The notes under the pieces: generated by a model
The model's input: only the letters and a program-made list of their open reading frames with translations
Databases searched by the model: none
What the model was told of the DNA's origin: nothing
Virus record (IMG/VR): IMGVR_UViG_3300047160_006104
Span: 29,865 to 93,864 of that record
Direction: 5' to 3' (one strand)
From: a virus
Lineage: Duplodnaviria > Heunggongvirae > Uroviricota > Caudoviricetes
Length of the DNA stretch: 64,000 bases
Program-made: the position numbers and the translations under genes
Part shown: in pieces, positions 13,881 to 51,892 of the stretch
How positions within the stretch are numbered: position 1 is the stretch's first letter
Layout of the letters: every line of letters begins with the position of its first letter

Positions 13881-13910
13881 CCCAGAATTATACACCACCG
13901 GGCTGGCATC

Positions 13911-18662: not shown

Positions 18663-18861
18663 CGTGTGTTTTACGCCAGTCCCGCAGGGAGTGCCACTGG
18701 CGAAATCTTTAAAAAGCTAGCTTGTTCCGGACTGTTCCGGCGGGCATCCGCTATTTGACGCCCGGACCCTGCGGTTCGTCGAGCATCGTAACGCCGCGCG
18801 CCACGCGCGCGGCGTTACGACACGCCGCTTTGGCATCGAACGGGTCAGTACGGAACGTGCA

Positions 18862-20739: not shown

Positions 20740-21216
20740 TTATGTCAAGCCGTACAAGCGTGTCATCACCGTCACGTCGTGGAATCGGCGGGCACCGCCG
20801 GATTGCGCGGCGCACACCGCCTGATCGGCCAGCGGCAGTTCGTCGGAGCACCAGTAGCTGACGACTCTGGCTGCCGCGGTGCGCAGGCCGACGTCGCCGA
20901 TGAAGGTGATGCCCTCCGCGGCGATCACCGCGACGATGCCGCAGGCGTGCTGCGCGTATTGGCGGTACAACGCCGCCAGCGTCAACGTGCCATACACCCC
21001 GCAATGACAGCCCGCCGCCGGCGCCGCATGCACACCCTCACCGTCTGTGCCGGGTTTGTATTTCACGCACACCGCCTCACACACCCCGTCTTTCCAGTGG
21101 CTGCCGTTCTGGATGATCGACGCCAACTGGCCGTCGACGATTTTGAAGGTCCGCAGCGCGTACCGGCCGACTTCAATGTTGACGGGTTCGGTGTTGTCGA
21201 TTCCGTAATCACTCAC
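20740..21216 (-). CDS. Cys-rich hypothetical protein
   Basis: GTG start overlapping stop of upstream ATPase gene. 'GCHCGVYG', several Cys/His. Confidence 0.45.
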   Translation of the reverse strand: MSDYGIDNTEPVNIEVGRYALRTFKIVDGQLASIIQNGSHWKDGVCEAVCVKYKPGTDGEGVHAAPAAGCHCGVYGTLTLAALYRQYAQHACGIVAVIAAEGITFIGDVGLRTAAARVVSYWCSDELPLADQAVCAAQSGGARRFHDVTVMTRLYGLT

Positions 21217-22399
21217 CGTCGACCTCGGGTGTAACGGGTGCAACGGGTGTAACGGGCACGTAGCGTTGCCAGGCGTCGGTGAAGTAGCCGCGCCGATACC
21301 CGCGGGCGACCCGGCCGGAACGTCCACCCATGCGCTGCAGCCGGGGTTCGACACCGTAACCGGACAGCAGTTTGGCCATCGCCGCAGCTGTCAGCCCAGC
21401 CCACGGGGATTCCTCCAACCCTTTGAGTTCGGTGACGAGCCGTTCGGTGAACAGCATGTCCACACCCAGACTGTCGAACACCTCTTTGGTGTCGGCCAGC
21501 AGCTGCATCCCGCGTGACGCGACAGCCTGCACACCGCAAACCGTTACACGTGTTACACCCGTTACACGCGCCGTTTCGGGCCAGTGGCCACCCGCCAAAT
21601 CCGCGACCGACAGCAGCGGCTCCCACACGTCGGCGTCACGGTCGGAAATCTCGTCAGGCATTTCCGGCAGGTAATTCAGCGCGTGTTCGTGGACGAACTC
21701 AGCCCAAAACTGCAGCAGATCACGAAGCTGTTCAGCTTCGGCGGGGCTGGTGCGCCGGTTCCACCGCTCCACGGTTTCCCCGGGCGCGCGGCGCTGCATC
21801 CGTATCACCACCGACCGGGTCCGGATGGTCGCCGGAACATCGGAGACGTCCATCATCCCGGCCATCGCCATCGCGCAGTACACGGAGTAGCGGATGATCC
21901 CACCTTTTTTGCCGCCGAGGTAGCGGTTGACGGTGGCGTCGCGGGCGTGACCGGAATCCAAGATACGGCGCATCCGCTCGTAGCGTCCCCCGCCGCCGAA
22001 CACCGTGTCCAACTCGTCGTAAAGCATGGTCGGGCGACCGCCGTTGATTTTGCGTTGCTCCTCGTTGACGTGATACAGGTACGCCGGTGTCAAATCGGTG
22101 GTGAAGTCAGGGTTAGGTACCAGATGCTGGGTGACCGTTAATGCCCTGGTTTTGCCGCTGCCGGCTTCGGGTGACACGAACAGCAGCCGCGGTGTGGTGT
22201 ACCAGGCGTCCATGAACCAGGTGTGCGCGATCCACAGCACATGCGCTCGGCGGGCGTCGTCGTCGGGGTAGGCGACGTAGCGCGCTAAAAACGCGTCGAT
22301 CTGATCGAGGATTTCGCAGCCTAAATCGGGTGCGAATTCGTATGGTGCGCCCTGGCGGAGCAGGTATTCGAGTTGGTCCTGCAGGTCAGGCTGGGACAT
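21209..22399 (-). CDS. DUF3631-like P-loop NTPase (putative replication/primase-associated ATPase)
   Basis: Walker A 'SPEAGSGKTR'. 396 aa. Architecture common in actinophage replication modules. Confidence 0.55.
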   Translation of the reverse strand: MSQPDLQDQLEYLLRQGAPYEFAPDLGCEILDQIDAFLARYVAYPDDDARRAHVLWIAHTWFMDAWYTTPRLLFVSPEAGSGKTRALTVTQHLVPNPDFTTDLTPAYLYHVNEEQRKINGGRPTMLYDELDTVFGGGGRYERMRRILDSGHARDATVNRYLGGKKGGIIRYSVYCAMAMAGMMDVSDVPATIRTRSVVIRMQRRAPGETVERWNRRTSPAEAEQLRDLLQFWAEFVHEHALNYLPEMPDEISDRDADVWEPLLSVADLAGGHWPETARVTGVTRVTVCGVQAVASRGMQLLADTKEVFDSLGVDMLFTERLVTELKGLEESPWAGLTAAAMAKLLSGYGVEPRLQRMGGRSGRVARGYRRGYFTDAWQRYVPVTPVAPVTPEVDGE

Positions 22400-23925: not shown

Positions 23926-24717
23926 ATGGTTGACGCGCGTTATCCCGATCGTTGGTTATCCGATCGACGCATTCAACGGCTGACCGACCGGGGGCACCGG
24001 GCTTTTGTCAGCGCGCTCACATGGTCGGTGTCGAATCGCACTGATGGTTATTTGGAACCGGAGGATCTCTCGCTTATTCCTGGCTTTGCTTTAGGTTGCG
24101 AGGACGAGTTGGTTGCTTCCACGCTATTGGGTGAGTGTGGACGGGGATGGCTCCTTGAGCCATTCGCCTCAACGCAGACCAGTCGTGCCGAGCTGGAGAG
24201 CCTAGAGATGGCGCGAGCCAAGGACCGAGAGCGCAAAGCAAAATCTCGTGCCGGACCGTCCACTGGACTGTCCGCCGGACAGTCCAGTGGACAAGTGGAC
24301 GGACTACACAGGCAGGCCCGCCAGGCTTCGCCTGCCGGGCACCCTACGGATGCCCAAGGTGAGACTCACACCCAGACAGAACCCCAAGTCGTCACCCAGC
24401 CGGGAACGGCACTAGAGCCGGTGGGTTCTAAGCGACGATCCTCGCCGCGAACCCAGATCCCTGATGGTTGGCGCCCACCGCGGGAGGTCGCGCTGCGCAT
24501 GATGGAGAAATATCCACATCTGAATTTAGCCGCAGAAGTCGAAGCGTTCATCAACCATCACCAGGCACATGGCAACGGGATGGTCGACTGGACGAAAGCG
24601 TTCTGGACCTGGTTAGGAAATACCCGCAAATTCGGCGCTAATGGTGGCAACGGCCATGAGTTAAGCACTGTCGATCAAAAGGCTGCCGGCTGGCAGGCTA
24701 GAAAGGAACACGCATGA
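23926..24717 (+). CDS. hypothetical protein (possible replication-associated wHTH protein)
   Basis: 263-aa ORF. Ser/Gly/Gln-rich linker. Start uncertain. Confidence 0.4.
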   Translation: MVDARYPDRWLSDRRIQRLTDRGHRAFVSALTWSVSNRTDGYLEPEDLSLIPGFALGCEDELVASTLLGECGRGWLLEPFASTQTSRAELESLEMARAKDRERKAKSRAGPSTGLSAGQSSGQVDGLHRQARQASPAGHPTDAQGETHTQTEPQVVTQPGTALEPVGSKRRSSPRTQIPDGWRPPREVALRMMEKYPHLNLAAEVEAFINHHQAHGNGMVDWTKAFWTWLGNTRKFGANGGNGHELSTVDQKAAGWQARKEHA

Positions 24718-27087: not shown

Positions 27088-27774
27088 TCACCCGTGCAGC
27101 TCAAACAACGCCAGTTCGTGAGGCTGCGCGATGACACCGCCCGGTGGGCTCATCTCGTCAATCCCGTCGACGCGTTTCAGGTGAAACGGTGCCGCGGTCA
27201 AGTCATGCGGACGTTCCATATAACCCGCCCACGGCACATCAGGATTAGCCGACAGATACGCGGCGTAGTCGAACGTGTTGTCGGCTCCCGGGTAATTCGA
27301 CGCCAGCAGATACCGGCTGCCGCTATCTTCGAATTTGTTGACCATCCCCATGATTTGTTCGGTGGGCAGGTGCGCTAAAAAATCCCGGCATAGGATTGCA
27401 TGCACTTTCGGGAACCGTTTACGTGTCAACAGGTTCGCGCAAATAAATGTCATCGCTTTGTAGTGGCCTAGTTCGCGGCGGTTAGCGTCGATGATGGGCT
27501 GGTTCACGTCGATACCGATGTAGCTGTCCAAGCAACTCAGGTCGGTGTTCTTCAGCCAGCCGCAGTCACCGCACGGCGCGTCCAGCAGCATCGTAATGTC
27601 GTAGTGGCGCAGCAGACCCGGCAGCGCCGCACGTAGACCTCGGGTGTATTCCAGCGACGAGCCGGGACCATTAACGCTGCCGCCGTTGATGACCATGAAC
27701 ATCGGGTCTTTATGCATATCTGCCACGATTTGACCCCAGGCCGAAGCCTGCTGTGTGACAAAGTCGTCGGTCAT
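27088..27774 (-). CDS. class I SAM-dependent methyltransferase (paralog of 12044..12778)
   Basis: 'MLLDAPCGDCGWL', 'RDFLAHLPTEQIMGMVNKFEDSGSRYLLASNYPGADNTFDY' colinear with paralog. Confidence 0.55.
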   Translation of the reverse strand: MTDDFVTQQASAWGQIVADMHKDPMFMVINGGSVNGPGSSLEYTRGLRAALPGLLRHYDITMLLDAPCGDCGWLKNTDLSCLDSYIGIDVNQPIIDANRRELGHYKAMTFICANLLTRKRFPKVHAILCRDFLAHLPTEQIMGMVNKFEDSGSRYLLASNYPGADNTFDYAAYLSANPDVPWAGYMERPHDLTAAPFHLKRVDGIDEMSPPGGVIAQPHELALFELHG

Positions 27775-28647: not shown

Positions 28648-28977
28648 ATGACCACCGTGGATGATTGCCCGCATTGCGGCCACGGGTGGGCGCTCCATTT
28701 GGAACGAACGAATTGTCTTGACTGCGGTTGCATGTGGACACTTCCGAAGCCGCCACCAGCGCCGCTCACCGAACGCGAGCTATTCGTGAGGCGTATTGCT
28801 GGCCTAATCCGTGAATCCGTGCGCGACCACTGCGATGGATACACCGACGAGTACGGGGTAGTGGACGGTGATGTCGATTTTATGAAGGTGGCTGAATCGC
28901 TCATCGACAAGTTCGGCCTTTCGCCTGCTCAACTGGGCACTGTCGTGAACTGGCGTCGCACCGACGGGCCGAACTGA
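28648..28977 (+). CDS. zinc-ribbon protein (CPHCGH...CLDCGC)
   Basis: 109-aa ORF flanked by the two copies of the duplicated ~100-bp segment. Confidence 0.4.
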   Translation: MTTVDDCPHCGHGWALHLERTNCLDCGCMWTLPKPPPAPLTERELFVRRIAGLIRESVRDHCDGYTDEYGVVDGDVDFMKVAESLIDKFGLSPAQLGTVVNWRRTDGPN

Positions 28978-29729
28978 ACCTGATTCGTCAACCCGGCGCC
29001 GAGCTGACTGTAATAGCCGAACTGCAAATAAGGTTTCCCGAAACTGCTCCAGTACGTTTGGCCTGAGTAGTTGGCGTAGCAGACGCCGTCGACGAACCAC
29101 TGCATGAACCCGGTGGTGTCGGCGGCCCATTTGGCTTGCATCACCACCTGATGCCACGCGCCCAGCGCGAGCGGCCCAGCGCTGTAATAGGTCTTCACGT
29201 TGGAACCACCGGAGTCGTACTGCACGTAGAATTTCCACCACGGCGCGGCGGGGGTGCCTTTCTGGCTGGTGTCGATCTGAATCGAATGGGCTTGGTTGGC
29301 TTGGGTGTGGAACTCCCAGAGCAGGCCGCAGAAAAACGGCGGCGGGAAACTCTGCGCAGGCAGATAGATCCAGGTGCTCCACTGGGCGATGGTGCCCAGC
29401 GCATCAGGGCTCGACCCGGCCTGGGTGCCTTGACACAGGATCGTTTTGTCCTGGCTTGACCAGACCGCGACGTCGGTGTCGGTGCAGGTCATCGAGAATC
29501 CCGGCCCGTTGGGAGTGGTGATCTGGGACAGGTGCGCGTTGCCGACGACGGGGGTTTGCCACGCCGGGACGAACGCGGCGGGGGTGTCTTTGAACGTTTG
29601 AACAGTGTTGGTGACGGTGCCGCCGGTCCAGATGTGCGGACCCGTCGTGGCGGCGCTCACTACTGGGTCGGTCAACGTCACTGTCGAGGTGGCGCCGTCG
29701 GCGGCGACCAGCGGAACGATGACGCTCAT
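28929..29729 (-). CDS. ConA-like lectin/glucanase-fold protein (polysaccharide lyase/hydrolase-like)
   Basis: 266 aa, beta-rich. 'WHQVVMQAKW', 'KPYLQFGYYSQ'. Confidence 0.4.
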   Translation of the reverse strand: MSVIVPLVAADGATSTVTLTDPVVSAATTGPHIWTGGTVTNTVQTFKDTPAAFVPAWQTPVVGNAHLSQITTPNGPGFSMTCTDTDVAVWSSQDKTILCQGTQAGSSPDALGTIAQWSTWIYLPAQSFPPPFFCGLLWEFHTQANQAHSIQIDTSQKGTPAAPWWKFYVQYDSGGSNVKTYYSAGPLALGAWHQVVMQAKWAADTTGFMQWFVDGVCYANYSGQTYWSSFGKPYLQFGYYSQLGAGLTNQVQFGPSVRRQFTTVPS

Positions 29730-30055
29730 GCGGTGGCCGTAATGCTGAGTTTGTTGGCGGACACGGTCCAGGTGCGCGGGGTGGGTCCGTTGTCCACGAT
29801 CGCCTTGGTGGTGTCGATAGTGACGGATTCTGGTGTGGTGGTGGTGGTCGTGATGGTCACCGGCACGGCCGGGAAATTCGCGGTCGTGGTGGCCCCGTCG
29901 GCGGCCACCAAAGGGACCGACACCGGACCGGCCTGCCCCGTCGTGGTGGTGGTGGTGGTCAGCACATCACTGCCGGCGATGGTGCCGGTGATCGTCTGAC
30001 CCGACGTGTAGGAGGTTTTGTCCCAGGACGCGGTGACGTTGAAGGTGTCAGGCAT
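29726..30055 (-). CDS. Thr-rich small structural-like protein
   Basis: Poly-Thr tracts. Shares 'VPLVAADGAT' with downstream gene. ATGA coupled. Confidence 0.45.
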   Translation of the reverse strand: MPDTFNVTASWDKTSYTSGQTITGTIAGSDVLTTTTTTTGQAGPVSVPLVAADGATTTANFPAVPVTITTTTTTPESVTIDTTKAIVDNGPTPRTWTVSANKLSITATA

Positions 30056-30309
30056 GAGCTTCCTTCCGCAGAGGGGGCGGGTTGAATGTCTTCAACGATG
30101 ACCCGCCGCAGCCCTTAAACCGGAGGCGACACGCCGAAGACGAACTACTCGGCAGGCTTCCCTTCGCGAAGAGGTTCCTATGGTGAGGCGTGGTCGATCT
30201 TGTTCGATCAGTGGGCGCCGCCGGGACAGCAGGAACTGCCGGGCCGCAAAGCCCTAGAAAAAGGCCATGACTCTGGCATATAATCGGCGCAGCGACCGAA
30301 GGAGAAAAA

Positions 30310-30342
30310 ATGCTCAGAGCCCTGGACATTCAGGCCCGCTGA
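30310..30342 (+). CDS. 9-codon leader peptide (uORF)
   Basis: Perfect RBS GAAGGAG, MLRALDIQAR*. Stop overlaps ATG of next gene (TGATG). Confidence 0.3.
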   Translation: MLRALDIQAR

Positions 30343-30770
30343 TGGGACTGGACATGAGCCACAACGCGTGGCACGGCGGCTACGCGTCGTTCGACAGGTT
30401 CCGCACCACCCTCACCGCGGTCGCAGGACTACCGCTGACCGACGGCGACCTGCCCAATACGAAATGGATCGACATCAATTGGGATGCAGTGACCACACTG
30501 AACCTGATGGGCGAATGGGGTGAAAAACTACCCACCTTACGCGACGGAACATTCGACCCGCTGATGCTGCTGATCGTCCACAGCGACTGCGACGGGGTCC
30601 TGCACCCCTATCACGCCAAATTGATCGCCGACCGGGTCGAAGAACTCATCCCGCTGCTGCCAGTTGAAGCTGAGGGACGCCACCGCGGCTACTACGCCGA
30701 GAAAGCGCAACAACTGGTCGACGGCTTCAGACGGGCACACGCGGCCGGGGAGGAAGTAGTGTTCGCGTAA
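30342..30770 (+). CDS. hypothetical protein
   Basis: 142 aa. Coupled to uORF. Confidence 0.45.
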   Translation: MGLDMSHNAWHGGYASFDRFRTTLTAVAGLPLTDGDLPNTKWIDINWDAVTTLNLMGEWGEKLPTLRDGTFDPLMLLIVHSDCDGVLHPYHAKLIADRVEELIPLLPVEAEGRHRGYYAEKAQQLVDGFRRAHAAGEEVVFA

Positions 30771-30973
30771 TGCCCACCGCTGCGGTCATCATCCCGTACA
30801 GGGACCGGGGTGTAGACCCGTTACGGCGGGCCAACCTGGAACGGATCCTCACCCACTATGAGGGCCACTTCGATACCCTCGTGGTCGGTGATGGCCGCAG
30901 CGGCGACGCCCAGTTCAACCGCCACGCCGCCTACAACCGCGGCGGGGGTGACGGCGTTTATCCCCATTATTGA
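30770..30973 (+). pseudogene. 5' fragment of glycosyltransferase gene (paralog of 33099..33839 N-terminus)
   Basis: Encodes 'MPTAAVIIPYRDRGVDPLRRANLERILTHYEGHF..GDGRSGDAQFNRHAAYNRG' then a stop. ~50-nt block is identical to the intact gene. Confidence 0.5.
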
Positions 30974-31025
30974 CGAGTAATGCACAAGGTTTTTCCACAG
31001 TTGTGAATCTGGCACGCATCATTTC

Positions 31026-31271
31026 GTGATGGCGCTAGGGTATCGGCCCTATCAGCATCAGATGGGCGTGGATCTCGGTACTCACACTTTCGGGAGGAAA
31101 GGGCAGTTGGCGATCACGCCGACGATCACCATCACCTTCGACAACGACGTGACCGTGCGGCGACCGTTCAAAGAGCTGTCGGGGCCGGAAGCTGTCAAGG
31201 AGTTACCGGCCGCGCCGAAGAAGCTGACCGGGCTGCGCAGGATGGGCCCGATGATGTTGTACAACCAGTAG
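31026..31271 (+). CDS. hypothetical protein upstream of flotillin
   Basis: 81-aa ORF. Start ambiguous. Confidence 0.35.
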   Translation: MMALGYRPYQHQMGVDLGTHTFGRKGQLAITPTITITFDNDVTVRRPFKELSGPEAVKELPAAPKKLTGLRRMGPMMLYNQ

Positions 31272-31283
31272 ATAGGAGAATCA

Positions 31284-32732
31284 ATGTTCGGGTATCGGGT
31301 TCCGCGGCCGGATCAGGCGATGCTGATCAGCGGCGGTAAGCAGAAAACCGAGGGCGCGACGTTCCGGGTGGTGATCGGCCACGGGGCGTGGGTGATGCCA
31401 GGTTTCCGCAAGGTCGGCTTCTTGGGTTTGGACCTGCACACTGTGGAGATCGCGGAGTCGTGCCGCTCCACCGAAGGCATCCTGCTCAACCTCAAAGCGG
31501 TGGTGGCGTTCAAGGTTCAGTCCGACATCGCGGCCGTCAACGCCGCCGCCCAGCGGTTCCTCGGCGACCAGAAAAAAGGGCAGATGGAGGACATGACGAA
31601 TCGGATCTTCGCTGGGCATCTGCGCTCCATCGTCGGGTCGATGGCGGTGGTCAACATTCACCGCAACCGCGACGAGTTGGCGCAGAACATTCTGCATCAT
31701 TCGCAGTCGGAGATGTCCACGCTCGGGTTGACGGTGGACTCGTTCCAGATTGAGCACCTTGATGACAACAACCTGGGGTATCTGGATGATCTTGCCGCGG
31801 AGGAGGTTGCGCAGCAGAAGAAGAAAGCCGGTATCGCGCGCGCCATCGCCGCCCAGGAGCAGGCGCAGGCTGAGCAGGAATCGACCCGTAAGCAGAACGA
31901 GCAGATTCGTGAGACGCAGGTGAAGGCTGCGGTGATCAAGTCGGAGATCGACAAGGCCAACGCCGAAGCGGAAGCCGCCGGCCAGCTCGCCGCCGCGGAT
32001 GTGCAGCAGCGGGTGTTAAAGCAGCAGCAGTTGGTCGCCGACACCAACGCCGAGTTGATCGAACGCAAACTGGCCGGTGAGCAGATCAAACCGGCCGAGG
32101 CCGACGCGAAAGCTAAGCGGATCGCCGCGGACGCCGACACCAGCGTCGCTGAGGCTGCCGGTAAGCGCGCCGAGTTCGAAGCGGTCGCCGCCAAGACCCG
32201 GCAGATCAAAGCCGCGGAAGCCAACGCCCTACAGGCCACCGTGACCGCCGAAGCTGCAGCCAAAGCGGCGGAATTCAACGCGAACGCAGTGCGTTCCCAG
32301 GCCCAGGCCGACGCTGACGCCGCCGAAGCCCGGGGTGTCTCGGCAGCCAAAGCACGTAAAGCGCAAGGCCTCGCCGAAGCCGAGGCGACCGAGGCGCAAG
32401 GTCTGGCCGAGGCCAAAGCCGAACTCGCCAAATCCAACGCCCTAGCCGCGAACAACAACGCGCGGCTGGATCTGGAGCGGGTGCGGATGATGCCCGAAAT
32501 CGCCCGCAACGTCGCCGAAGGCGTCAACCTGGGTGGCGCGAACCTTTACGTCGCCAACGGTGCCGAGGGGATCAGCCAACTCGCCGCCCTGGCGATCCCG
32601 GTCATGCAGCAAGTCATGGCCGCGATGGGCACCATGTTCTCCCGCAACGAAACCGAGGCGATGTCCAACGATAACGGCCAGCAGGCGGCAGCCTACGGGC
32701 CGAATACGCCGATGGACATCTCCACCCGCTGA
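31284..32732 (+). CDS. flotillin-like SPFH/band-7 domain protein
   Basis: N-terminal SPFH domain (FRVVIGHGAWVMPGFRKVGFLGLDLHTVEI..). ~250-aa Ala/Glu/Gln-rich flotillin-type coiled-coil. C-terminal tail. Confidence 0.7.
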   Translation: MFGYRVPRPDQAMLISGGKQKTEGATFRVVIGHGAWVMPGFRKVGFLGLDLHTVEIAESCRSTEGILLNLKAVVAFKVQSDIAAVNAAAQRFLGDQKKGQMEDMTNRIFAGHLRSIVGSMAVVNIHRNRDELAQNILHHSQSEMSTLGLTVDSFQIEHLDDNNLGYLDDLAAEEVAQQKKKAGIARAIAAQEQAQAEQESTRKQNEQIRETQVKAAVIKSEIDKANAEAEAAGQLAAADVQQRVLKQQQLVADTNAELIERKLAGEQIKPAEADAKAKRIAADADTSVAEAAGKRAEFEAVAAKTRQIKAAEANALQATVTAEAAAKAAEFNANAVRSQAQADADAAEARGVSAAKARKAQGLAEAEATEAQGLAEAKAELAKSNALAANNNARLDLERVRMMPEIARNVAEGVNLGGANLYVANGAEGISQLAALAIPVMQQVMAAMGTMFSRNETEAMSNDNGQQAAAYGPNTPMDISTR

Positions 32733-32733
32733 C

Positions 32734-33102
32734 ATGACCGAGGAACCAGGACTGTTCGCCGAGCCCGAGCATTCCGGTGCGATCAGACTGCCTGCGCTCA
32801 CCTCGGGTGAGCGCAGGCAGTCTCTGGTGGCCACCCGCATCGCCAACGGCGAACACCCACTAGGCCGGCCCGTCCTGCTGCACCACTCAGCCAGCCGCAC
32901 CATCCTCGAAGCCGGACATGAGACCACCCTGCCCACCTGCGGCGACTGCAAGTTTCGGGTGCTGCTGAAGCACAACACCCGCACATACCCCAAGTGCTGG
33001 TATCCCGACCTGCACCGTTACCCGCATCCCCGCGACACCGGCTGCGAGTCCAGTGATATCCGCGCGTGGTGGCCAGCGTGCCGAGAGTTCGAGCGCAAAT
33101 GA
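32734..33102 (+). CDS. hypothetical Cys-containing protein
   Basis: 122 aa. Stop overlaps next ATG. Confidence 0.4.
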   Translation: MTEEPGLFAEPEHSGAIRLPALTSGERRQSLVATRIANGEHPLGRPVLLHHSASRTILEAGHETTLPTCGDCKFRVLLKHNTRTYPKCWYPDLHRYPHPRDTGCESSDIRAWWPACREFERK

Positions 33103-33839
33103 CCGCTGCGATCATCGTCGGCTTCCGGGACAGGGGTGTGGACCCGCTCCGGCAGGCCAATCTGGAACGGGTCCTCACCCACTACGGTGGCCACTTCCCC
33201 GTCTTGGTCATCGGCGACGGCCGCAGCGGCGACGCCCAGTTCAACCGCCACGCCGCCTATAACCGCGGTGCCGCGCAAACAGACGCCGACGTTCTGGTCT
33301 ATATCGAGGCCGACATCCTCATCGATCCGGCCCAGATACGGCACGGCATCGACTTCGCGGCGCACCGGGCCGGGCAGATCATCCCGTTCTCCTTCCAGCA
33401 CAAACTGTCCGAAGTCGATTCGAGGCTGGTCCGCGGATACCTCAAGGATCCCGCCGACTGTGTGCCGGAGCTCACCCATCACACGGCCGAGACGTTCTGG
33501 AATCATGGCTGCGCCACGATCATCAACCGCACCACCCTTGAGATGGTCGGAGGCTGGGATGAGAAGTTCGAGGGCCACGGCCATGACGACACGGCGATGC
33601 TGATCGCGTTCGACCGCGTCACCGGCTACCCACCGGCCTGTATTGATGGGCCGGCGTATCACCTGTATCACCTCGACTTCGACCCGACGTTGACCCGAGG
33701 GGCGCACATCACTGCGGCCGACGTCGACGCCCAGCAGCGCAACCTGGACCGGCTCAACCTGTATCGGCGCACCACCAATCCGCATCAAATCCGGCAACTC
33801 ACCGCCGGAGGTGGCGGCGACTGGCGACACCGGGCGTAA
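33099..33839 (+). CDS. glycosyltransferase (GT-A-like)
   Basis: 'AIIVGFRDRGVDPLRQANLERVL' N-terminal motif. 'VLVYIEADILI' acidic motif. Confidence 0.5.
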   Translation: MTAAIIVGFRDRGVDPLRQANLERVLTHYGGHFPVLVIGDGRSGDAQFNRHAAYNRGAAQTDADVLVYIEADILIDPAQIRHGIDFAAHRAGQIIPFSFQHKLSEVDSRLVRGYLKDPADCVPELTHHTAETFWNHGCATIINRTTLEMVGGWDEKFEGHGHDDTAMLIAFDRVTGYPPACIDGPAYHLYHLDFDPTLTRGAHITAADVDAQQRNLDRLNLYRRTTNPHQIRQLTAGGGGDWRHRA

Positions 33840-33850
33840 TACTGCCCTTT

Positions 33851-34771
33851 GTGGACTTTCTGGTCACCGGCGGCGCGGGTTTCATCGGACGGCATACGGT
33901 CAGAGCGCTCAAGGCCGCGTATTCCGACGCCGAAATCGTCTGTTTGGACAACTTATCGCTGAGTAAGCCACCAGGACGGGATTTCGGCGCGGAGTTTGTC
34001 TATGGCGATGTCCGCGACACCCTGCTGGTCACCCAGATGGTCGAAAGATGCCGTCGCGGCATCATCCACCTGGCCGCCGATTCGCGGGTGCTGCCGTCGC
34101 TGGCCGACCCGGCTTTAGTGTGCGATTCGGCGCGCTCGAATGTGATCGGGACCGCTAACGTGTTGGCCGCGATGGCGAAATCCCCGCGCGATCTGCGGCT
34201 GGTGTACGCGGGTTCGTCCACGGCATACGGCAACCGGCCCGGTCCACCGAACCGGGAGAGGGATCTGCCGGCGGTGCAGAGCCCGTATTCGGCGACCAAA
34301 CTGGCCGGCGAACTGCTGGTGCGGTCGTTCGTGGTGACCTTCGGGATCAAAGCCACGGTGCTGCGCTACTTCCAGGTGTACGGGCCGGGACAACCCACAA
34401 CAGGCGCGTATGCGATGGTGACCGGGGTGTTTCTGCGTCAAGCTGCGGCCGGGGAACCGTTGACGATTGAGGGCAACGGGTCGCAGACCCGCGACTTCGT
34501 GCACGTCACCGACGTAGCCAGAGCCAACGTCGCCGCCTTGGACAGCGTCGGCGCTGTCGGGTTGCCGATCAACATCGGCTCCGGGGAGAGTCATTCCATT
34601 CAGGAACTGGCGGATCTGATCTCGGCGAACCAAACGTATTTGCCGCCGCGGAAAGTGGATTTGAAGGCCACCCAAGCCGACATCAGCCAGGCAGCGAATT
34701 ACCTGGGCTGGAAGCCGCTGATCAGCTTCCGCGACGGGATGGCTGAAATGATGGCATTGGCCAGTCTATGA
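33851..34771 (+). CDS. NAD-dependent sugar epimerase/dehydratase (extended SDR)
   Basis: 'VTGGAGFIGRH' Rossmann. 'YSATK' YxxxK catalytic. 306 aa. Confidence 0.75.
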   Translation: MDFLVTGGAGFIGRHTVRALKAAYSDAEIVCLDNLSLSKPPGRDFGAEFVYGDVRDTLLVTQMVERCRRGIIHLAADSRVLPSLADPALVCDSARSNVIGTANVLAAMAKSPRDLRLVYAGSSTAYGNRPGPPNRERDLPAVQSPYSATKLAGELLVRSFVVTFGIKATVLRYFQVYGPGQPTTGAYAMVTGVFLRQAAAGEPLTIEGNGSQTRDFVHVTDVARANVAALDSVGAVGLPINIGSGESHSIQELADLISANQTYLPPRKVDLKATQADISQAANYLGWKPLISFRDGMAEMMALASL

Positions 34772-35352
34772 GCCAGGATTATTCGCCCGGCCCGTTTTTT
34801 CCCGGCGGCCACTATCCGCTGTTGCGGCACATCTGCGGGGAGCTGAAACCCGCCGGGACCGCGCTGGAGTTCGGTGTCTCCAACGGGTCGAGTTTGCGGA
34901 TCATCGCCGAGCACATGCCGGCGGTGGGGTTCGACAGTTTCGCCGGTCTGCCGGAGGCGGGGTGGCGCGGCTACCCGCTGGGCATGTTCGCGCACAAACC
35001 CCCGGTCATCGCTAACACCCGGCTGGTGATCGGCATGTTCGACCAGACCCTGCCACGCTTCGCCTTCGACACCGTCGACCCGATCGGTTTGGTGCATCTG
35101 GACTGTGACCTGTACTCCTCGACCGGCACTGTCCTGCACTATCTGCAACCCCACCTTAAGTCGGGCTGCTACATCGTCCTCGACGATTATTGGGAGATCG
35201 CGGTCGCTGAAACTGCGGGCGCACAAGAGTTCGACGGCGAGCGGGCGCAGGATGAGGTGTCGCATGCGTGGCGCGAGTTCACCGAACACAGCGACATTGA
35301 GTGGAAAGTGATCGGCTGCACCGGCGGGGCGTGGGCCATCCAGCTCGTCTGA
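34768..35352 (+). CDS. TylF/MycF-family sugar O-methyltransferase
   Basis: 'LVHLDCDLYSSTGTVLHYLQPHLKSGCYIVLDDY' signature of macrocin-O-methyltransferase family. ATGA coupling. Confidence 0.65.
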   Translation: MSQDYSPGPFFPGGHYPLLRHICGELKPAGTALEFGVSNGSSLRIIAEHMPAVGFDSFAGLPEAGWRGYPLGMFAHKPPVIANTRLVIGMFDQTLPRFAFDTVDPIGLVHLDCDLYSSTGTVLHYLQPHLKSGCYIVLDDYWEIAVAETAGAQEFDGERAQDEVSHAWREFTEHSDIEWKVIGCTGGAWAIQLV

Positions 35353-35370
35353 GCGTGTAAGACTTGCGCC

Positions 35371-36396
35371 GTGACACAGGTCATCATCTTCGTTTTTGCT
35401 GGCCGCCGCCCGAACTTGGAGCTGCAGTTGCCGATGGTCCGCAGGATTCTCGATGAGAACCCCAACACGCGTTTTGATATATGGAACTTCGCGCGCAACG
35501 AGTCCGACCGGGAGTTCATCAAAACCATCACCGGTGAGCGGATCATGGTGTGGAACGGCACCAGCGAGGGGTTCGCCTCGCCGGTCCCGACGCTGGGTGA
35601 GGGCAAGCAGTTCGGCGCCGGGGAACATAACGCCGCGTACGAGCACTACAGCCAGCCGCAGTTCAAAGACACCGTGTTCGTCAAGGTGGACGACGACATC
35701 GTGTTCCTCGAGACGGCCCGGTTTGCCACGTTCATCAAAGCGATCCGGGCCTATCCGCACGCCGCTTTGGTGGCCAACATCATCAACAACGGGGCTTGCA
35801 CCCCGGTCACGCCGGGTATTTGGGACGGGTTCCGCAAGCTGGGCATGTCGCTTTTAGATATCCACCGCTACGGCAGTTTCGCCGAGATGGCGCACAGCTA
35901 TTTCTTCACCCACTACGGCGACATGTTGTCCGATGAGGTCGAGCTGATCCCGACCACCGACTGGCTCTCCATCAACGCTGTCGGCTACACGTGGCCGGTG
36001 CTGCAGCGGGTGATCACCACGATCGGCACCCCTCACCCTGCGTATTTGGCTGGCCGTAACATGGTCGGCTGGGGCCGCGTGTTCGGCGACGAGGGCGTGT
36101 TCCAGTTGTTGCCGCGGATCATCGTGAAGGGCTTCACCTGCGCGCATTTGACCTACGGGCCACAAGAGTCGGGTGATTCTCTAGATCGGTGGCGGGAGAA
36201 TTACCGTCTGATCGGCCAAAGCTATCTGGATTCGTTCCCGCCACCCGATCACGTCGACCTGCCGGGCCTGTCGGCGGTGTCGTCGGGGCAGACGGCGCAC
36301 ATTGACCGGGAGGCGTTGATCGCCCAGTGGGGGCCGAACAACTGGCGGGTCCGGGCGTTGGAGAACGACCCGTGCGTGGGACGGTTCACTCCGTAG
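35371..36396 (+). CDS. putative nucleotide-sugar glycosyltransferase (GT-A-like, VDDD motif)
   Basis: 341 aa. 'VFVKVDDDIVFLE' acidic motif. Confidence 0.4.
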   Translation: MTQVIIFVFAGRRPNLELQLPMVRRILDENPNTRFDIWNFARNESDREFIKTITGERIMVWNGTSEGFASPVPTLGEGKQFGAGEHNAAYEHYSQPQFKDTVFVKVDDDIVFLETARFATFIKAIRAYPHAALVANIINNGACTPVTPGIWDGFRKLGMSLLDIHRYGSFAEMAHSYFFTHYGDMLSDEVELIPTTDWLSINAVGYTWPVLQRVITTIGTPHPAYLAGRNMVGWGRVFGDEGVFQLLPRIIVKGFTCAHLTYGPQESGDSLDRWRENYRLIGQSYLDSFPPPDHVDLPGLSAVSSGQTAHIDREALIAQWGPNNWRVRALENDPCVGRFTP

Positions 36397-36706
36397 GTTT
36401 GTCCTGCGAGTTCTGTGCGCGCATCTGCTCGCGCCACGCCGCCACCTTGGCGATGGAGGCCTCGCGGCCTTTGAGGTAGAGCGCGATCGCCGAGATCCAG
36501 GCCATCGCCGCATTGATCCACTCGGACACCGCCGCGCTGGGCAGGTTGGGGAAGATCACGGTGTTGACGAACACGGTGATGCCGGTGAGTAGGGCCACGA
36601 TCAGTGACCAGTGCTCGACCAGCCAGTAGGGCTTCGGCCCGCGCAACGCGACCCAGTCCGGCAGCCAGTGCTTGCCGCCGCCGCCCTGCGTGTCGGGCTC
36701 GGTCAT
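36386..36706 (-). CDS. two-TM membrane protein
   Basis: 'WSLIVALLTGITVFVNTVIF', 'AAMAWISAIALYL'. Confidence 0.45.
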   Translation of the reverse strand: MTEPDTQGGGGKHWLPDWVALRGPKPYWLVEHWSLIVALLTGITVFVNTVIFPNLPSAAVSEWINAAMAWISAIALYLKGREASIAKVAAWREQMRAQNSQDKPTE

Positions 36707-36797
36707 AGATGAATTGTCGACCCTGCCAGACGGTTCTCAGGATGACCGGCCAGGCGTGTCGCCCAGTGTTTGGCCGCTGTGGTCGGATACTGCCGGT

Positions 36798-37481
36798 GTG
36801 AAGACCGCAGCGATGGTTCTGCTGATCTTGCCGCTTTTCCTGCAGAATCCAGCGGCCAATGCCGACCCGGTTCCGGTCCCGGTGCCCGTCCCGGTTCCTA
36901 ACCCGCCGGGCTTCATCGGCGGCATCGGCGGCATCGGTGGGGGTGGCGGTTTCGGTTCGGCGTCACCGGGTATCGGCGGTGAACCGGGTATCGGTTTCGT
37001 CGCCCCTTCCTTGGCCCCGCCGACAGGGGGGATTTTTCTGTGCCCCGGCGTGGGTGCGGCCGGCGCGTCTATCGGTGCCGGCGGAGGATACTGCGATTTT
37101 GATTTCCGCGAAGTCATCGGGGGGCACGGCAACATGCACACGCACTGTGAATGGGGCGGCTTCTCGCCCATCGTTCAAATGTGGAACTGCTGGCGGGTGT
37201 TCCCCGGCCAGCCGGATCATCCTAAATTGCCGGATCCGGACATCATCCCTGATGGCATGGGTGTGCCTTGGGCGATCGCCGGGCCGACCCCGGACAACCA
37301 GTGGCCGCCGCCGGGTCTGGCTCCGTGGCAGGATCTACAGCCACCGACACCCGAAGGCCCGCCGCCAGGGCCGCCGCCGCCACCTGCACCTTCCCCGCCG
37401 CCGGGACCGCTGGGTCCACCGCCGGGGCCATTACAGGGGCAGCTTGGCCCCGCCGAAGGACCCATAGGGCTGCTGCCATGA
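36798..37481 (+). CDS. secreted Gly/Pro-rich Cys-containing protein (paralog A)
   Basis: Signal peptide VKTAAMVLLILPLFLQNPAANA. (PV)n, GIGG repeats. 'GGGYCDFDFREVIGGHGNMHTHCEWGGF'. Pro-rich tail. Confidence 0.5.
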   Translation: MKTAAMVLLILPLFLQNPAANADPVPVPVPVPVPNPPGFIGGIGGIGGGGGFGSASPGIGGEPGIGFVAPSLAPPTGGIFLCPGVGAAGASIGAGGGYCDFDFREVIGGHGNMHTHCEWGGFSPIVQMWNCWRVFPGQPDHPKLPDPDIIPDGMGVPWAIAGPTPDNQWPPPGLAPWQDLQPPTPEGPPPGPPPPPAPSPPPGPLGPPPGPLQGQLGPAEGPIGLLP

Positions 37482-38065
37482 AACGGCTGGCATTGCTGGC
37501 ATGTGTGCTCACGCTGCCGATCTCATGGCGGGCACCGACGGCGCACGCCGACACCCAATGTCCCTACCCCGGCGTCGGCGTTCTCGATGTGAACATCGTC
37601 GGCGTCGGCGGCGGGTTCTGCGACTTCCCCACCGAGATCAACGGGTCGCACTGGCATTGCCAGGCCGGTGGAATCAACCTGGGCGGCGTGTTCGGCGGCG
37701 CGAACGGCGGCCTGAGCGTGGGCGGCAACCCCGCCGGCATCGGCGGGGTGAGTTGTAACTGGCGCTGCCCCGACGGCGCCGACGCGCCGGCGCCGAATCC
37801 TCCCGGCGCGTGGGTGCGTTACCTGGTGCCGATGAACACCACGAACTTCTGCAAAGACCACATGACCCCTAATGGCCTGTGGACCAATCCTGTGTTGCCG
37901 ACAGAAGGACTTCCCCCGGCGGGACAGCAGCCGCCGCCGCCTCCTCAGCCGGTCCCGGCCCCGGTGCCGTGGCTTAGCCCACCGGGTCCACCTGCGTCTG
38001 CGCCTGCGGAGGAGCCGTCACCGATAGAACCCGGACCGCTACCGGGACTCATACCGCCCCCGTGA
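37478..38065 (+). CDS. secreted Gly/Pro-rich Cys-containing protein (paralog B)
   Basis: Signal peptide MKRLALLACVLTLPISWRAPTAHA. 'GGGFCDFPTEINGSHWHCQAGGI' paralogous core. ATGA-coupled. Confidence 0.55.
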   Translation: MKRLALLACVLTLPISWRAPTAHADTQCPYPGVGVLDVNIVGVGGGFCDFPTEINGSHWHCQAGGINLGGVFGGANGGLSVGGNPAGIGGVSCNWRCPDGADAPAPNPPGAWVRYLVPMNTTNFCKDHMTPNGLWTNPVLPTEGLPPAGQQPPPPPQPVPAPVPWLSPPGPPASAPAEEPSPIEPGPLPGLIPPP

Positions 38066-48137: not shown

Positions 48138-48944
48138 GTGGCGTTCCCAGAAATGACCTACTCGCGGCGTTATCGTGCGCGCATGGCATACAAACTGGGC
48201 TTAAAAGCGCCTGTGCCCGGCGCGATCCCGCTGCGGCTGGCCACCTACATGGACTTCCACCAACTGCCCACCCCACCCGCCGTGTTCGGCCACTACCAGT
48301 TGATCAGCGACTGGGGGATGCTGGCCAACGACCAGCTCGGCGATTGCGCCATCGCCGGCGCCTGCCACCAAACGATGCTGTGGACACTGGAAGGCTCCGG
48401 GGTCGCCGCCTCCTTTGATGACACCGCCGCCATCACCAACTACTCCGCGATCACCGGCTACAACCCCGACGACCCGTCCACCGACGAGGGCACCGCGCTC
48501 GGCCAGCTCGCCGCTTACTGGCGCACTTACGGCATCGTTGACGCCGCCGGCAAACGCCACAAGGTCGCCGCCGTCGTCGATATCAACCCCGGCGACCTAC
48601 GCGAACTGTGGGTGTCCTCGTGGCTGTTCCAAGCCGTCGGCCTCGGGTATCTGATGCCGCAGTCGGCGATGGATCAAACCGCGGCCGGGAAACCCTGGAA
48701 CCCGGTGCGCGGCTCCCCCATCGAAGGAGGTCATTACGTACCACTAATGGGCCGCAACCCCGCCGGCAACGGCGTCATCATCACCTGGGGACAAACCCAA
48801 GAAGTCACCCCCGCCTTCCACAAGAAGTACAACGACCAGGGCATCGCCGCGTTGTCTGAGGAGATGCTGGATAAAGCCGCCAGCGTTGACGGGTTCAACG
48901 AGACGCTACTCAAACAAGACCTGGCCACGATCGGGCTTCCGTGA
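48138..48944 (+). CDS. putative NlpC/P60-like cysteine peptidase (lysis-associated)
   Basis: 'NDQLGDCAIAGACHQTMLW' Cys/His pair. First gene of lysis-side plus-strand block. Start uncertain. Confidence 0.35.
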   Translation: MAFPEMTYSRRYRARMAYKLGLKAPVPGAIPLRLATYMDFHQLPTPPAVFGHYQLISDWGMLANDQLGDCAIAGACHQTMLWTLEGSGVAASFDDTAAITNYSAITGYNPDDPSTDEGTALGQLAAYWRTYGIVDAAGKRHKVAAVVDINPGDLRELWVSSWLFQAVGLGYLMPQSAMDQTAAGKPWNPVRGSPIEGGHYVPLMGRNPAGNGVIITWGQTQEVTPAFHKKYNDQGIAALSEEMLDKAASVDGFNETLLKQDLATIGLP

Positions 48945-49573
48945 CCTGGTGGCACCGCTTGGGCGAGAACAAGCCGATCACGGATCTGCTCGAGCGGGTC
49001 GGCCCACCGTCCATCGACGCCGCCACCGAGCATCCGCTCAGCGACCTGTCGGTGCTCAACCAGTTCAAAGCCGCACCTTTCCCCCCTGGTTATCCCGCCT
49101 ACACACCCACGTTCTACAGCCCGGTCGACGACATTCCATCGGTGTTGCAGACGCTGTTCAGCGGGGCGCAGAAGTCGCTGGTGATCTGCTTTTACGGGTT
49201 CGATGACGAGAAGCTGGCCGACATCATCAAAGAGAAAGCCGAAGATCCTGGTGTCGCGGTACAGATCAGCCTGGATTCCACGCAGGCCGGCGGCGTCCAC
49301 GAGAAAGCCTTGCTGGCCAAGGAAGCGTATCCGTCCTCGTCGGTCGCCGTCGGGCAAAGCGAGAAACACGCCATCATGCACATGAAGCTGGCGATCATCG
49401 ACGGCGTGTACGTGGTGACGGGCAGCACCAACCTGTCGGTGCGCGCCGAAACCGCCCAGGACAACCAACTCACCGTGGTCGGCGATGCTTACGTCGCGGC
49501 CGAGGCGCGGGCACGCTGCGACGCGATCCACTTCAACATGCTCAACCAAATGCACGCCAAGGGGTTGCGCTAA
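48941..49573 (+). CDS. phospholipase D / Nuc-family single-HKD protein
   Basis: 'HMKLAIIDGVYVVTGSTNLS' = HxK(x)4D(x)6GSxN motif, single copy. 210 aa. ATGA coupled. Confidence 0.65.
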   Translation: MTWWHRLGENKPITDLLERVGPPSIDAATEHPLSDLSVLNQFKAAPFPPGYPAYTPTFYSPVDDIPSVLQTLFSGAQKSLVICFYGFDDEKLADIIKEKAEDPGVAVQISLDSTQAGGVHEKALLAKEAYPSSSVAVGQSEKHAIMHMKLAIIDGVYVVTGSTNLSVRAETAQDNQLTVVGDAYVAAEARARCDAIHFNMLNQMHAKGLR

Positions 49574-51404: not shown

Positions 51405-51892
51405 CCGAACGCTGGCTGCCCATCGCTGGATACCGAGGTTTCTACGAGGTCTCGGACCATGGCCGCGTGCGCTCAATAGACCGAACGGTGATCACCAAGC
51501 GTGGACCGTGGCGATATCGCGGACGGCCGCTAAAACCATGGAAGCGAGACGACGACCACTTCACGGTTCGTATGGATCATCAGCACGTCCGCATTCACAG
51601 ACTCGTCCTAGAAGCCTTTGTCGGTCCATGCCCAGACGGGATGGAAGCCTGCCACAACGATGGGAACCCGGCGAACAATCACCTGAGCAACTTGCGGTGG
51701 GATACACGCCGGGAAAACATCCTTGATGCGATCAAGCACGGATCACACCATTGGGCCAAGAAGAGTCATTGCCCGCTGGGGCATCCATACAGTACAGATA
51801 ACACTTATGTGACCGTCCGGCGCAGCGGATATGTAACACGACGTTGTAAAACATGCCATAAGGCAGAAGCTCGGCGCCGGAGGGCAGCATGA
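51398..51892 (+). CDS. HNH homing endonuclease (NUMOD4 N-terminus) between lysA and lysB
   Basis: 'WLPIAGYRGFYEVSDHGRVRSIDR'. 'CHNDGNPANNHLSNLRWDTRRENI' HNH. Confidence 0.65.
   Translation: MVTERWLPIAGYRGFYEVSDHGRVRSIDRTVITKRGPWRYRGRPLKPWKRDDDHFTVRMDHQHVRIHRLVLEAFVGPCPDGMEACHNDGNPANNHLSNLRWDTRRENILDAIKHGSHHWAKKSHCPLGHPYSTDNTYVTVRRSGYVTRRCKTCHKAEARRRRAA

Follow-up and report, generated by a model that had tools for sequence, protein, structure and literature searches.

The locus studied here raises the question why a phage carries a flotillin gene in front of a row of sugar-modifying enzymes, and what these enzymes act on. It occupies positions 31026–36396 of a 64-kb window, the whole stretch of DNA that was analysed, which is part of the 113.8-kb source contig of a tailed phage (IMG/VR record IMGVR_UViG_3300047160_006104, positions 29,865–93,864). 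From left to right, the plus strand encodes a flotillin-like protein, a glycosyltransferase of family phrog_1721, an epimerase-like enzyme of the short-chain dehydrogenase/reductase (SDR) type, a TylF-type O-methyltransferase and a glycosyltransferase of family phrog_4447 (Table 1). An earlier interpretation made from the letters alone (the sequence-only reading) had joined the flotillin to enzymes likened to the mycobacterial glycopeptidolipid tailoring set, and had offered decoration of virion proteins or conversion of host surface glycolipids as functions. We consider it reasonably probable that 33099–36396 is a mycobacteriophage-type protein O-glycosylation cassette for virion proteins with a C4-epimerase of its own, and that the flotillin block is a separate mosaic passenger.

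The protein families were confirmed by profile searches of each open reading frame (ORF) against Pfam and PHROG and by a structure model for the last glycosyltransferase. The phrog_1721 glycosyltransferase matches Glyco_tranf_2_2 with 37 bits (gathering score 27.3) and is 45–47% identical to Che8 gp109, Optimus gp17 and Krili gp34, a relationship of the orthologue type. The methyltransferase exceeds the gathering cut-offs of both PF05711 and PF13578. Its identity to phage proteins is 45–53% over the full length (Krili gp32, 45%; C-terminal half of Che8 gp108, 46%; Babsiella gp75, 52%), and in the PDB it weakly matches the sugar O-methyltransferases NovP, CalS11 and MycF. The phrog_4447 protein is 42–43% identical to Krili gp33, Optimus gp16 and phiGD22-1 gp110; these cultured-phage homologues span only residues 1 to ~290, and a C-terminal extension of ~50 amino acids is absent from them. 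Three consecutive aspartates (D107-D108-D109, DDD) are invariant across 40 homologues. The model of this protein (predicted local distance difference test, pLDDT, 88.6) gave GT-A matches in Foldseek with a probability of 1.0, at TM-scores of only 0.36–0.45, including ColGalT1, chondroitin polymerase, GtrB and hyaluronan synthase. The confident model thus points to a glycosyltransferase of GT-A fold.

Searches of annotated phages with tblastn placed the methyltransferase and both glycosyltransferases in cassettes of clusters F, O, I, J and S and of Mycobacterium abscessus prophages. The genes concerned are Che8 gp108/gp109, Krili gp32–34, Babsiella gp75–77, Optimus gp16/gp17 and phiGD22-1 gp109–111, with identities of 42–53%. 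We also surveyed 81 loci containing a phrog_4447 relative, 79 from IMG/VR and two from exact-protein look-ups. A phrog_1721 gene accompanies it in 73 of the 81, the methyltransferase in 65 and a glycosyltransferase of the Che8 gp110 type in 55. Judged by homology, phrog_1721, methyltransferase and phrog_4447 belong, as its conserved core, to a type of system already known and characterised by experiment. Phage-encoded glycosyltransferases of this type are reported, in passages of PMC11600133 and PMC12363180 that both cite Freeman et al. (2023), to O-glycosylate capsid and tail-tube proteins. By analogy, decoration of the virion, one of the two functions offered before, agrees with the role reported there for the homologous mycobacteriophage cassettes. 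Because of this role and of the 42–53% identity to phage cassettes, we assign the enzymes to this known kind of system and not to a glycopeptidolipid-like pathway.

The likeness to the glycopeptidolipid Gtf/Rmt set consists in a TylF-family sugar O-methyltransferase and an SDR accompanied by glycosyltransferases. The Gtf enzymes of that set belong to GT1 and have the GT-B fold, whereas at least one transferase of the window has a GT-A model and a DXD motif; the phrog_1721 enzyme matches GT2-type Pfam models. The SDR lacks the dehydratase residues, and the nearest relatives of the window enzymes, the glycosyltransferases included and the epimerase excepted, are phage proteins. The proposed resemblance to the glycopeptidolipid set is therefore unsupported.

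The SDR enzyme sets the cassette apart from those of cultured mycobacteriophages. Its motifs GGAGFIG (residues 7–13, the NAD-binding GxxGxxG), GSSTAYG and YSATK align with the catalytic positions of 6wjb and 4zrm. In GSSTAYG, Ser-Thr stands where 4,6-dehydratases have the acidic Asp-Glu pair (S-T-D-E-V-Y-G), and the score against the dTDP-glucose dehydratase model is 134 bits, compared with a cut-off of 365. Every match of the SDR to an NCBIfam equivalog model was under the cut-off of that model. The best solved relatives are 6wjb/6wj9 (1.5e-39), which we take to be PelX, a UDP-N-acetylglucosamine (UDP-GlcNAc) C4-epimerase, followed by the Thermotoga UDP-glucose 4-epimerase 4zrm, WbgU and MoeE5. 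The enzyme thus appears to be C4-epimerase-like and not a 4,6-dehydratase, its best solved relatives being C4-epimerases of UDP-hexoses and UDP-N-acetylhexosamines; a dTDP-deoxyhexose 4-epimerase is a formal alternative. Since the motifs are of the epimerase type, the analogy to O-methylated deoxyhexose or rhamnose loses its basis, and the deoxyhexose product that had been proposed is unsupported. In the simplest reading, one of the phage's transferases uses a 4-epimer donor that the phage itself makes.

Among the best-matching phage records, no close mycobacteriophage homologue of the SDR was found; the best matches are nucleotide-sugar epimerases of cyanophages with ~40% identity. Epimerases with 65–74% identity lie beside glycosyltransferases in eight loci (L011–L016, L082 and L092). 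They include a 175.7-kb contig (L011, GCA_040384205.1), two loci near-identical to each other (L015 and L016) and a prophage of Mycobacterium gordonae DSM 44160, in which the cassette adjoins the terminase gene (L092). These eight, all close relatives, are the only ones with an epimerase among ~82 viral or prophage cassettes surveyed. They are exactly the loci whose phrog_4447 proteins are nearest to that of the window (45–62% identity), so that the epimerase marks out a sub-clade of the cassette. The window's nearest relatives have the same families adjoining one another, with gene order and strand fluid within the sub-clade. The methyltransferase was found in three of them by tblastn and in two more as a Methyltransf_24 gene. 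A flotillin occurs only in L011, elsewhere in the locus.

As a separate observation, most epimerase-type cassettes (L012, L013, L014 and L015) hold two phrog_4447 paralogues of ~350 and ~320 amino acids. The shorter one is 38–45% identical to the window protein, and the window has the long form only.

The ORFs of the 31026–36396 region are of coding type, with a G+C content at third codon positions (GC3) of 0.78–0.85. The tight packing proposed for the plus-strand operon is real. The stop codon of the first ORF at 31271 is followed by a 12-nt gap containing AGGAGA and the flotillin ATG; after the flotillin stop at 32732, a single nucleotide precedes the ATG (32734) of a 122-residue ORF, which in turn overlaps the phrog_1721 gene by an ATGA (33099–33102). 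An 11-nt gap lies ahead of the epimerase gene, a second ATGA overlap (34768–34771) links it to the methyltransferase gene, and 18 nt lie ahead of the last glycosyltransferase gene at 35371. What did not hold was the inventory: the co-directional block begins at 30267 and not at 31026. It includes a 167-residue phrog_11026 gene, which directly follows the divergent intergenic region 30056–30266, and a 67-residue remnant of a glycosyltransferase N-terminus. The 122-residue ORF (32734–33102), which occupies the apparent gap between flotillin and glycosyltransferase, had been overlooked together with this remnant. The phrog_11026 gene was considered as a cassette member and rejected, as its homologues in clusters J and F lie far from the glycosyltransferase loci of those phages.

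No transmembrane segment was predicted in any operon protein, and soluble proteins fit the modification of virion proteins in the cytoplasm. A scan for consensus promoters and terminators gave nothing beyond shuffled expectation. None of seven operon proteins matched a PADLOC defence-system model at E ≤ 0.01, and a reading of the operon as anti-phage defence was set aside on this ground.

The position of the flotillin within the operon is probably explained by the DNA on its two sides. A 167-nt direct repeat brackets the flotillin block, and both copies correspond to the 5′ end of a phrog_1721 glycosyltransferase gene. The two copies align from the ATG onward; their similarity ends at ~30943, just behind a stretch identical at nearly every position, part of which (65 nt) is 91% identical to cluster I phage genes. 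When 56.6 kb of the window were compared with 50,697 phage records by megablast, the sole match was a stretch of 65–69 nt in the glycosyltransferase remnant. The remnant has 79% amino acid identity to residues 13–70 of the intact glycosyltransferase and 57–66% to Che8 gp109, Optimus gp17 and Krili gp34. Between remnant and intact gene lie 2.15 kb (30944–33098) with an 81-residue ORF, the flotillin gene and the 122-residue ORF, which encodes a protein with four conserved cysteines (Cys4). Mycobacteriophage mosaics usually arise through junctions at short conserved sequences. By its architecture the block is such a mosaic insertion, with the signature of recombination between two phages with different alleles. 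The sequence-only reading had taken the flotillin as the partner of the enzymes; it lies within the insertion and, L011 apart, flotillin relatives lack the cassette and most cassettes lack a flotillin.

The three genes of the block have separate histories. For the 81-residue ORF, no match was found in Pfam, PHROG, NCBIfam or PADLOC. An NfeD-like partner upstream of the flotillin was considered and dismissed, as the small ORFs at this place in the window and in three other flotillin loci (L001, L005 and L008) are mutually unrelated.

The flotillin reaches 151 bits against the NCBIfam FloT model (NF058507), far under the equivalog cut-off of 700 bits, and belongs to an actinobacterial flotillin clade rather than to the FloT equivalog. 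A chromosomal flotillin of an actinobacterium, surrounded by ordinary metabolic genes (L001), is 63% identical to it over the full length and ~84% within the SPFH domain, and nine further chromosomal loci are equally close. With the bacterial flotillins (Bacillus subtilis FloT/YuaG and the actinobacterial ones) the phage protein shares an SPFH domain followed by an Ala/Glu-rich coiled-coil tail, and with the actinobacterial chromosomal homologues the N-terminus MFGYRVP. It differs in being phage-encoded, in having no NfeD partner gene and in the predicted lack of an N-terminal anchor: the Kyte-Doolittle mean does not exceed 1.6 in any stretch of 19 residues. Peripheral or lipid-mediated attachment to the membrane is compatible with this.

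No actinophage relative of the flotillin was detected among the 50,697 phage records, and none in scans of viral contigs. Two phage-like contigs (L005 and L008) carry a flotillin among unrelated neighbours with no glycosyltransferase nearby, and similarity between window and L005 starts only at the ribosome-binding site. Nine metagenome flotillin loci (L122–L130) are chromosomal and have no glycosyltransferase. A flotillin beside a glycosyltransferase pair in locus L094 was considered as a phage parallel and discarded, as its neighbourhood is chromosomal and the sibling loci L096 and L099 have no flotillin there. The flotillin would thus be a host-chromosome-type accessory gene and is probably an unrelated passenger.

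The Cys4 protein belongs to a family of ~120 residues in which C69, C72, C88 and C116 are invariant among 43 homologues. It had no match in Pfam, PHROG or PADLOC, and its model (pLDDT 78) gave no significant fold match. Its homologue in L011 adjoins a glycosyltransferase gene and is inverted. Those in L118 and L120 have early or replication genes as neighbours and no glycosyltransferase gene in the vicinity, and a glycosylation-specific function was discarded on this ground.

The Cys4 ORF contains a perfect inverted repeat with a predicted RNA hairpin. The homologous genes in L011, L118 and L120 lack it, and no U-tract follows it. The right arm encodes a conserved GERR motif, while the left arm replaces a poorly conserved segment. 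As the homologues are without the palindrome, it looks like a local inverted duplication. It may serve as a transcript-processing or attenuation hairpin between flotillin and enzyme genes.

Comparison with studied phages shows where the window follows the known cassettes and where it departs from them. In Che8 (cluster F, gp108–gp110) all proteins are likewise soluble and the genes tightly clustered and co-directional, with 46% identity for the methyltransferase (to the C-terminal half of gp108) and 45% for the phrog_1721 enzyme (gp109). However, the Che8 methyltransferase is fused to an N-terminal glycosyltransferase domain, that of the window is not. Che8 has gp110 (phrog_854), which the window lacks, and is without phrog_4447, epimerase and flotillin; its cassette lies at the right genome end. 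Clusters O (Krili gp32–35) and I (Babsiella gp75–77) share the methyltransferase (45–52%), phrog_4447 (34–42%) and phrog_1721 (46%). Their order is methyltransferase, phrog_4447, phrog_1721, followed in cluster O by phrog_854, whereas the window has phrog_1721, epimerase, methyltransferase, phrog_4447. The cultured phages lack an epimerase, and their phrog_4447 proteins are without the C-terminal extension of the window protein.

Cluster J (Omegavirus: Optimus, Ariel and Courthouse) has a similar genome size of about 110 kb. Its proteins are related to those of the window through phrog_12406 (46%), gp16 (43%), gp17 (47%) and a phrog_3382 protein of the Ariel gp17 type (39%), but there is no nucleotide-level similarity to the window. 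The cluster J genes lie between head and connector genes, together with a kinase and further glycosyltransferases; those of the window are dispersed at 9.7, 12, 27 and 33–36 kb. The known element would accordingly be the mycobacteriophage glycosylation cassette. The apparent departures are the flotillin recombined in and the built-in C4-epimerase. The latter is common to one M. gordonae prophage and a small clade of large Mycobacterium phages, most of which are uncultivated.

For the target, the sugar and the part played by the flotillin, we infer the following course of events. In the cytoplasm of the infected cell, the two soluble glycosyltransferases and the TylF-type methyltransferase would equip phage structural proteins with a short glycan that is O-methylated in part, the targets being capsid and tail-tube subunits as in the studied relatives. 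One of the transferases would use a 4-epimer that the C4-epimerase forms from an abundant host donor, for example UDP-Glc or UDP-GlcNAc. Recombination in the conserved 5′ end of the glycosyltransferase gene would have inserted the flotillin gene, the 81-residue ORF and the Cys4 gene. The flotillin would then be co-transcribed by position only, and its most likely role is one at the host membrane that does not involve glycosylation.

Several results weigh against this proposal. Identity to the studied enzymes is only 42–53%, and the genes stand in another order than the canonical methyltransferase, phrog_4447, phrog_1721. Capsid and tail-tube genes, which would encode the acceptor sites, are located beyond the 64-kb window. 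Further, no phrog_854 gene (Che8 gp110/Corndog gp38 type) was found in the window by tblastn with Che8 gp110, Krili gp35 and phiGD22-1 gp117 (E ≤ 0.01). In a passage of PMC12363180, the phrog_854-type glycosyltransferase is called essential in Che8 and Corndog. It is also missing from all epimerase-type loci and from cluster I cassettes. The gene may sit in the remaining ~50 kb beyond the window, or the glycosyltransferase at 9669–10328 may substitute for it as a candidate glycan starter.

The pair of phrog_4447 and phrog_1721 also occurs as a chromosomal island outside any phage context in Mycobacterium metagenome-assembled genomes (MAGs). In the Mycobacterium and Actinomycetota MAG contigs L094–L107, this two-gene island is without methyltransferase or epimerase and has a GC3 of 0.72–0.77 compared with ~0.87–0.91 in the flanking genes. 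The mapped islands (L094, L096 and L099) lie between a RibA-like and an ABC-transporter-like gene and are plainly chromosomal. These islands imply that the enzymes are not restricted to virion targets.

A cassette acting on the host envelope would modify glycopeptidolipids, lipooligosaccharides or arabinogalactan-linked glycans, and would mask receptors or exclude superinfecting phages as serotype-converting phages do. The MAG islands speak for it, as a low-GC3 chromosomal island in many Mycobacterium MAGs implies that the substrate there is not a virion. The TylF family comprises methyltransferases that act on the sugars of small-molecule glycosides, and the operon itself includes a gene for a membrane scaffold. 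We nevertheless regard this as unlikely. Neither a membrane-spanning glycosyltransferase nor a flippase or lipid-carrier enzyme is predicted from the operon, and in relatives of clusters J and O the cassette sits among head and tail genes. The scanned ORFs of the window included no integrase or repressor gene, and expression from a lysogen would have to be assumed. The homologous phage cassettes are, moreover, those for which action on capsid and tail-tube proteins is reported in the passages of PMC11600133 and PMC12363180 cited above.

A different use of the same enzymes, glycosylation of secreted or accessory phage proteins or of host proteins, has candidates directly beside the operon in a poly-threonine protein (29726–30055) and a lyase-like protein (28929–29729). 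Threonine-rich linkers are classic O-glycosylation sites in actinobacteria; the poly-threonine protein has runs of six and seven threonines, and a homologue of the lyase-like gene is found 6 kb from the cassette in L014. Linker glycosylation in actinobacteria normally proceeds via the membrane-bound Pmt pathway, not via soluble GT-A enzymes, and the adjacency that suggests such substrates is kept in one other locus only; we judge this use improbable.

The strongest challenge to the passenger status of the flotillin comes from its distribution. An SPFH gene lies within 10 kb of three of the eight epimerase-type cassettes and of none of 74 other viral ones (Fisher p = 6e-4; the loci are related and so do not count as independent). 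Such an association is not readily expected if the flotillin is there purely by accident. If the flotillin were a true partner, a membrane microdomain would recruit the soluble transferases or the assembling virions, and glycosylation would take place at the membrane. The packing of the flotillin gene, co-directional and followed by a 1-nt gap and then an ATGA overlap into the glycosyltransferase gene, agrees with this. L011 encodes a flotillin of 53% identity on the opposite strand, 2 kb past the cassette; in L012, a different, membrane-anchored Band_7 protein is encoded 6 kb upstream of it. Yet the three SPFH-bearing phages are related, L011 and the window sharing in the same order a methyltransferase of the 27088 type, a NUMOD4 gene, the Cys4 gene and the cassette. 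The position and strand of the SPFH gene differ case by case, and five epimerase-type loci have none within reach. The inspected loci of Che8, the Corndog type and clusters I and J encode no flotillin near their cassettes, and the insertion signature and the flotillins of L005, L008 and L122–L130, which have no glycosyltransferase nearby, also argue against a partnership. On balance, a true partnership seems to us quite doubtful.

The SPFH gene of L012 was apparently acquired independently, which keeps a functional link alive at low probability. A bolder proposal is that the phage clade with epimerase cassettes has repeatedly acquired SPFH scaffolds, and that a membrane microdomain built by the phage organises glycosylation, virion assembly or the export of phage-encoded envelope proteins, a PPE protein being encoded in the window. 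We rate this as a long shot; if true, it would provide a phage-encoded flotillin raft with a defined client.

The glycosyltransferase at 9669–10328 had been noticed near the tail genes and is indeed a member of phrog_12406. It is 46% identical to Optimus gp12 of the same family, whose gene directly follows the Optimus major head gene. The two further S-adenosylmethionine (SAM) methyltransferases that had been counted with the operon enzymes are true paralogues (phrog_3382, 44% identical), with Pfam methyltransferase matches under the gathering scores. They are unrelated to the TylF enzyme, and the one at 27088–27774 is encoded on the minus strand, outside the plus-strand set. Homologues of the latter precede the cassette by 2–4 kb in L011 and L014 (58–59% identical) and in L015 (38%), and Ariel gp17 (39%) is part of a capsid-adjacent locus of glycosyltransferase, kinase and methyltransferase genes. 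As the sequence-only reading had supposed, these three genes add plausibly to the theme: the synteny of the 27088–27774 gene and the capsid-adjacent loci of Ariel gp17 and Optimus gp12 suggest that they share the glycan programme of the cassette.

Table 1. Features of the window discussed in the text (coordinates refer to the window; scores are E-values unless given in bits).
Feature	Position	Strand	Evidence and remarks
phrog_11026 protein, 167 residues, function unknown	30267–30770	+	phrog_11026 3.2e-23; first gene of the block
phrog_1721 glycosyltransferase remnant, 67 residues, ~58 N-terminal residues homologous	30770–30973	+	phrog_1721 8e-21, profile positions 3–59 of 232
Direct repeat, 167 nt	30776–30942 (left), 33102–33268 (right)		83% identical; brackets the inserted block
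Orphan ORF, 81 residues	31026–31271	+	GC3 0.83; no predicted transmembrane segment; unlike NfeD
Flotillin-like SPFH protein, 482 residues	31284–32732	+	PF01145 SPFH/Band_7 9.8e-20, 71.8 bits (gathering score 23.6)
Cysteine-rich (Cys4) protein, 122 residues, conserved small phage protein, function unknown	32734–33102	+	CxxC and two more Cys
Perfect inverted repeat, 18 bp, 3-nt loop	32785–32823		inside Cys4 ORF; predicted RNA hairpin, −38.7 kcal/mol
phrog_1721 glycosyltransferase, GT2-like by Pfam	33099–33839	+	PF10111 Glyco_tranf_2_2 3.1e-09; phrog_1721 7e-66
Extended-SDR nucleotide-sugar C4-epimerase-like enzyme	33851–34771	+	PF01370 Epimerase 2.9e-52
TylF/Methyltransf_24-type O-methyltransferase	34768–35352	+	PF05711 2.1e-10; PF13578 5.7e-09; phrog_6608 2.8e-55
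phrog_4447 glycosyltransferase, predicted GT-A fold	35371–36396	+	phrog_4447 9e-94; no Pfam match
Extra glycosyltransferase	9669–10328	+	phrog_12406 8.6e-61; after minor tail genes
Class-I SAM methyltransferase-like protein	12044–12778	+	phrog_3382 2e-38; Methyltransf_25 26.2 bits (gathering score 27)
Class-I SAM methyltransferase-like protein	27088–27774	−	phrog_3382 2.6e-34
Polysacc_lyase/ConA-like protein, 266 residues	28929–29729	−	PF14099 7.5e-10
Poly-threonine protein, 109 residues	29726–30055	−	runs TTTTTTT and TTTTTT; divergent from operon
Minor tail proteins	77–2967		
DUF732 protein	13230–13898	−	mycobacterial secreted-protein family
DUF3631 protein	21209–22399	−	
PPE-family protein, 460 residues	41315–42697	−	PF00823 1.6e-51; genes of unknown function on both sides
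tRNA-Arg, anticodon CCG	44831–44909	+	single gene
PLD-like domain protein	48941–49573	+	directly upstream of lysin A
Endolysin (lysin A)	49573–51024		
HNH endonuclease			
Cutinase-like LysB	51889–52707		
ParB-like protein, RecE, RecT	within window		

The gene content of the window, with a G+C content of ~62%, clearly points to a mycolic-acid-containing host. The PPE gene is a host marker and an unusual accessory gene for a phage. PPE proteins are substrates of mycobacterial ESX secretion; a PE-like partner was not detected among the adjoining small ORFs. The poly-threonine and the lyase-like protein both contain VPLVAADGAT. Directly downstream of the operon, two plus-strand ORFs in overlapping frames (36672–37481 and 37268–38065) encode Pro/Gly-rich proteins with hydrophobic N-terminal stretches, and neither has a match in Pfam or PHROG. 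A palindrome scan of the whole window detected long perfect palindromes at 18786–18820, 24258–24292 and 40188–40225, with stems of 16, 16 and 14 bp, which may be terminators or operator sites.

None of these results alters the general view of the way in which cassettes of this type function. Mycobacteriophages are reportedly protected from antibodies by the glycosylation of their virions, a point of relevance to phage therapy. A cassette extended by its own epimerase in one clade implies a glycan sugar that the host pool may not supply. The flotillin represents a cleanly bounded case of a gene of host-chromosomal type inside a phage operon. In doubly lysogenic Mycobacterium chelonae, the most strongly induced gene (~99-fold) is annotated as a flotillin (PMC8191103), indicating that mycobacterial flotillin expression responds to prophage carriage. 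As flotillin function in mycobacteria is poorly understood, the phage copy could be a handle on that biology.

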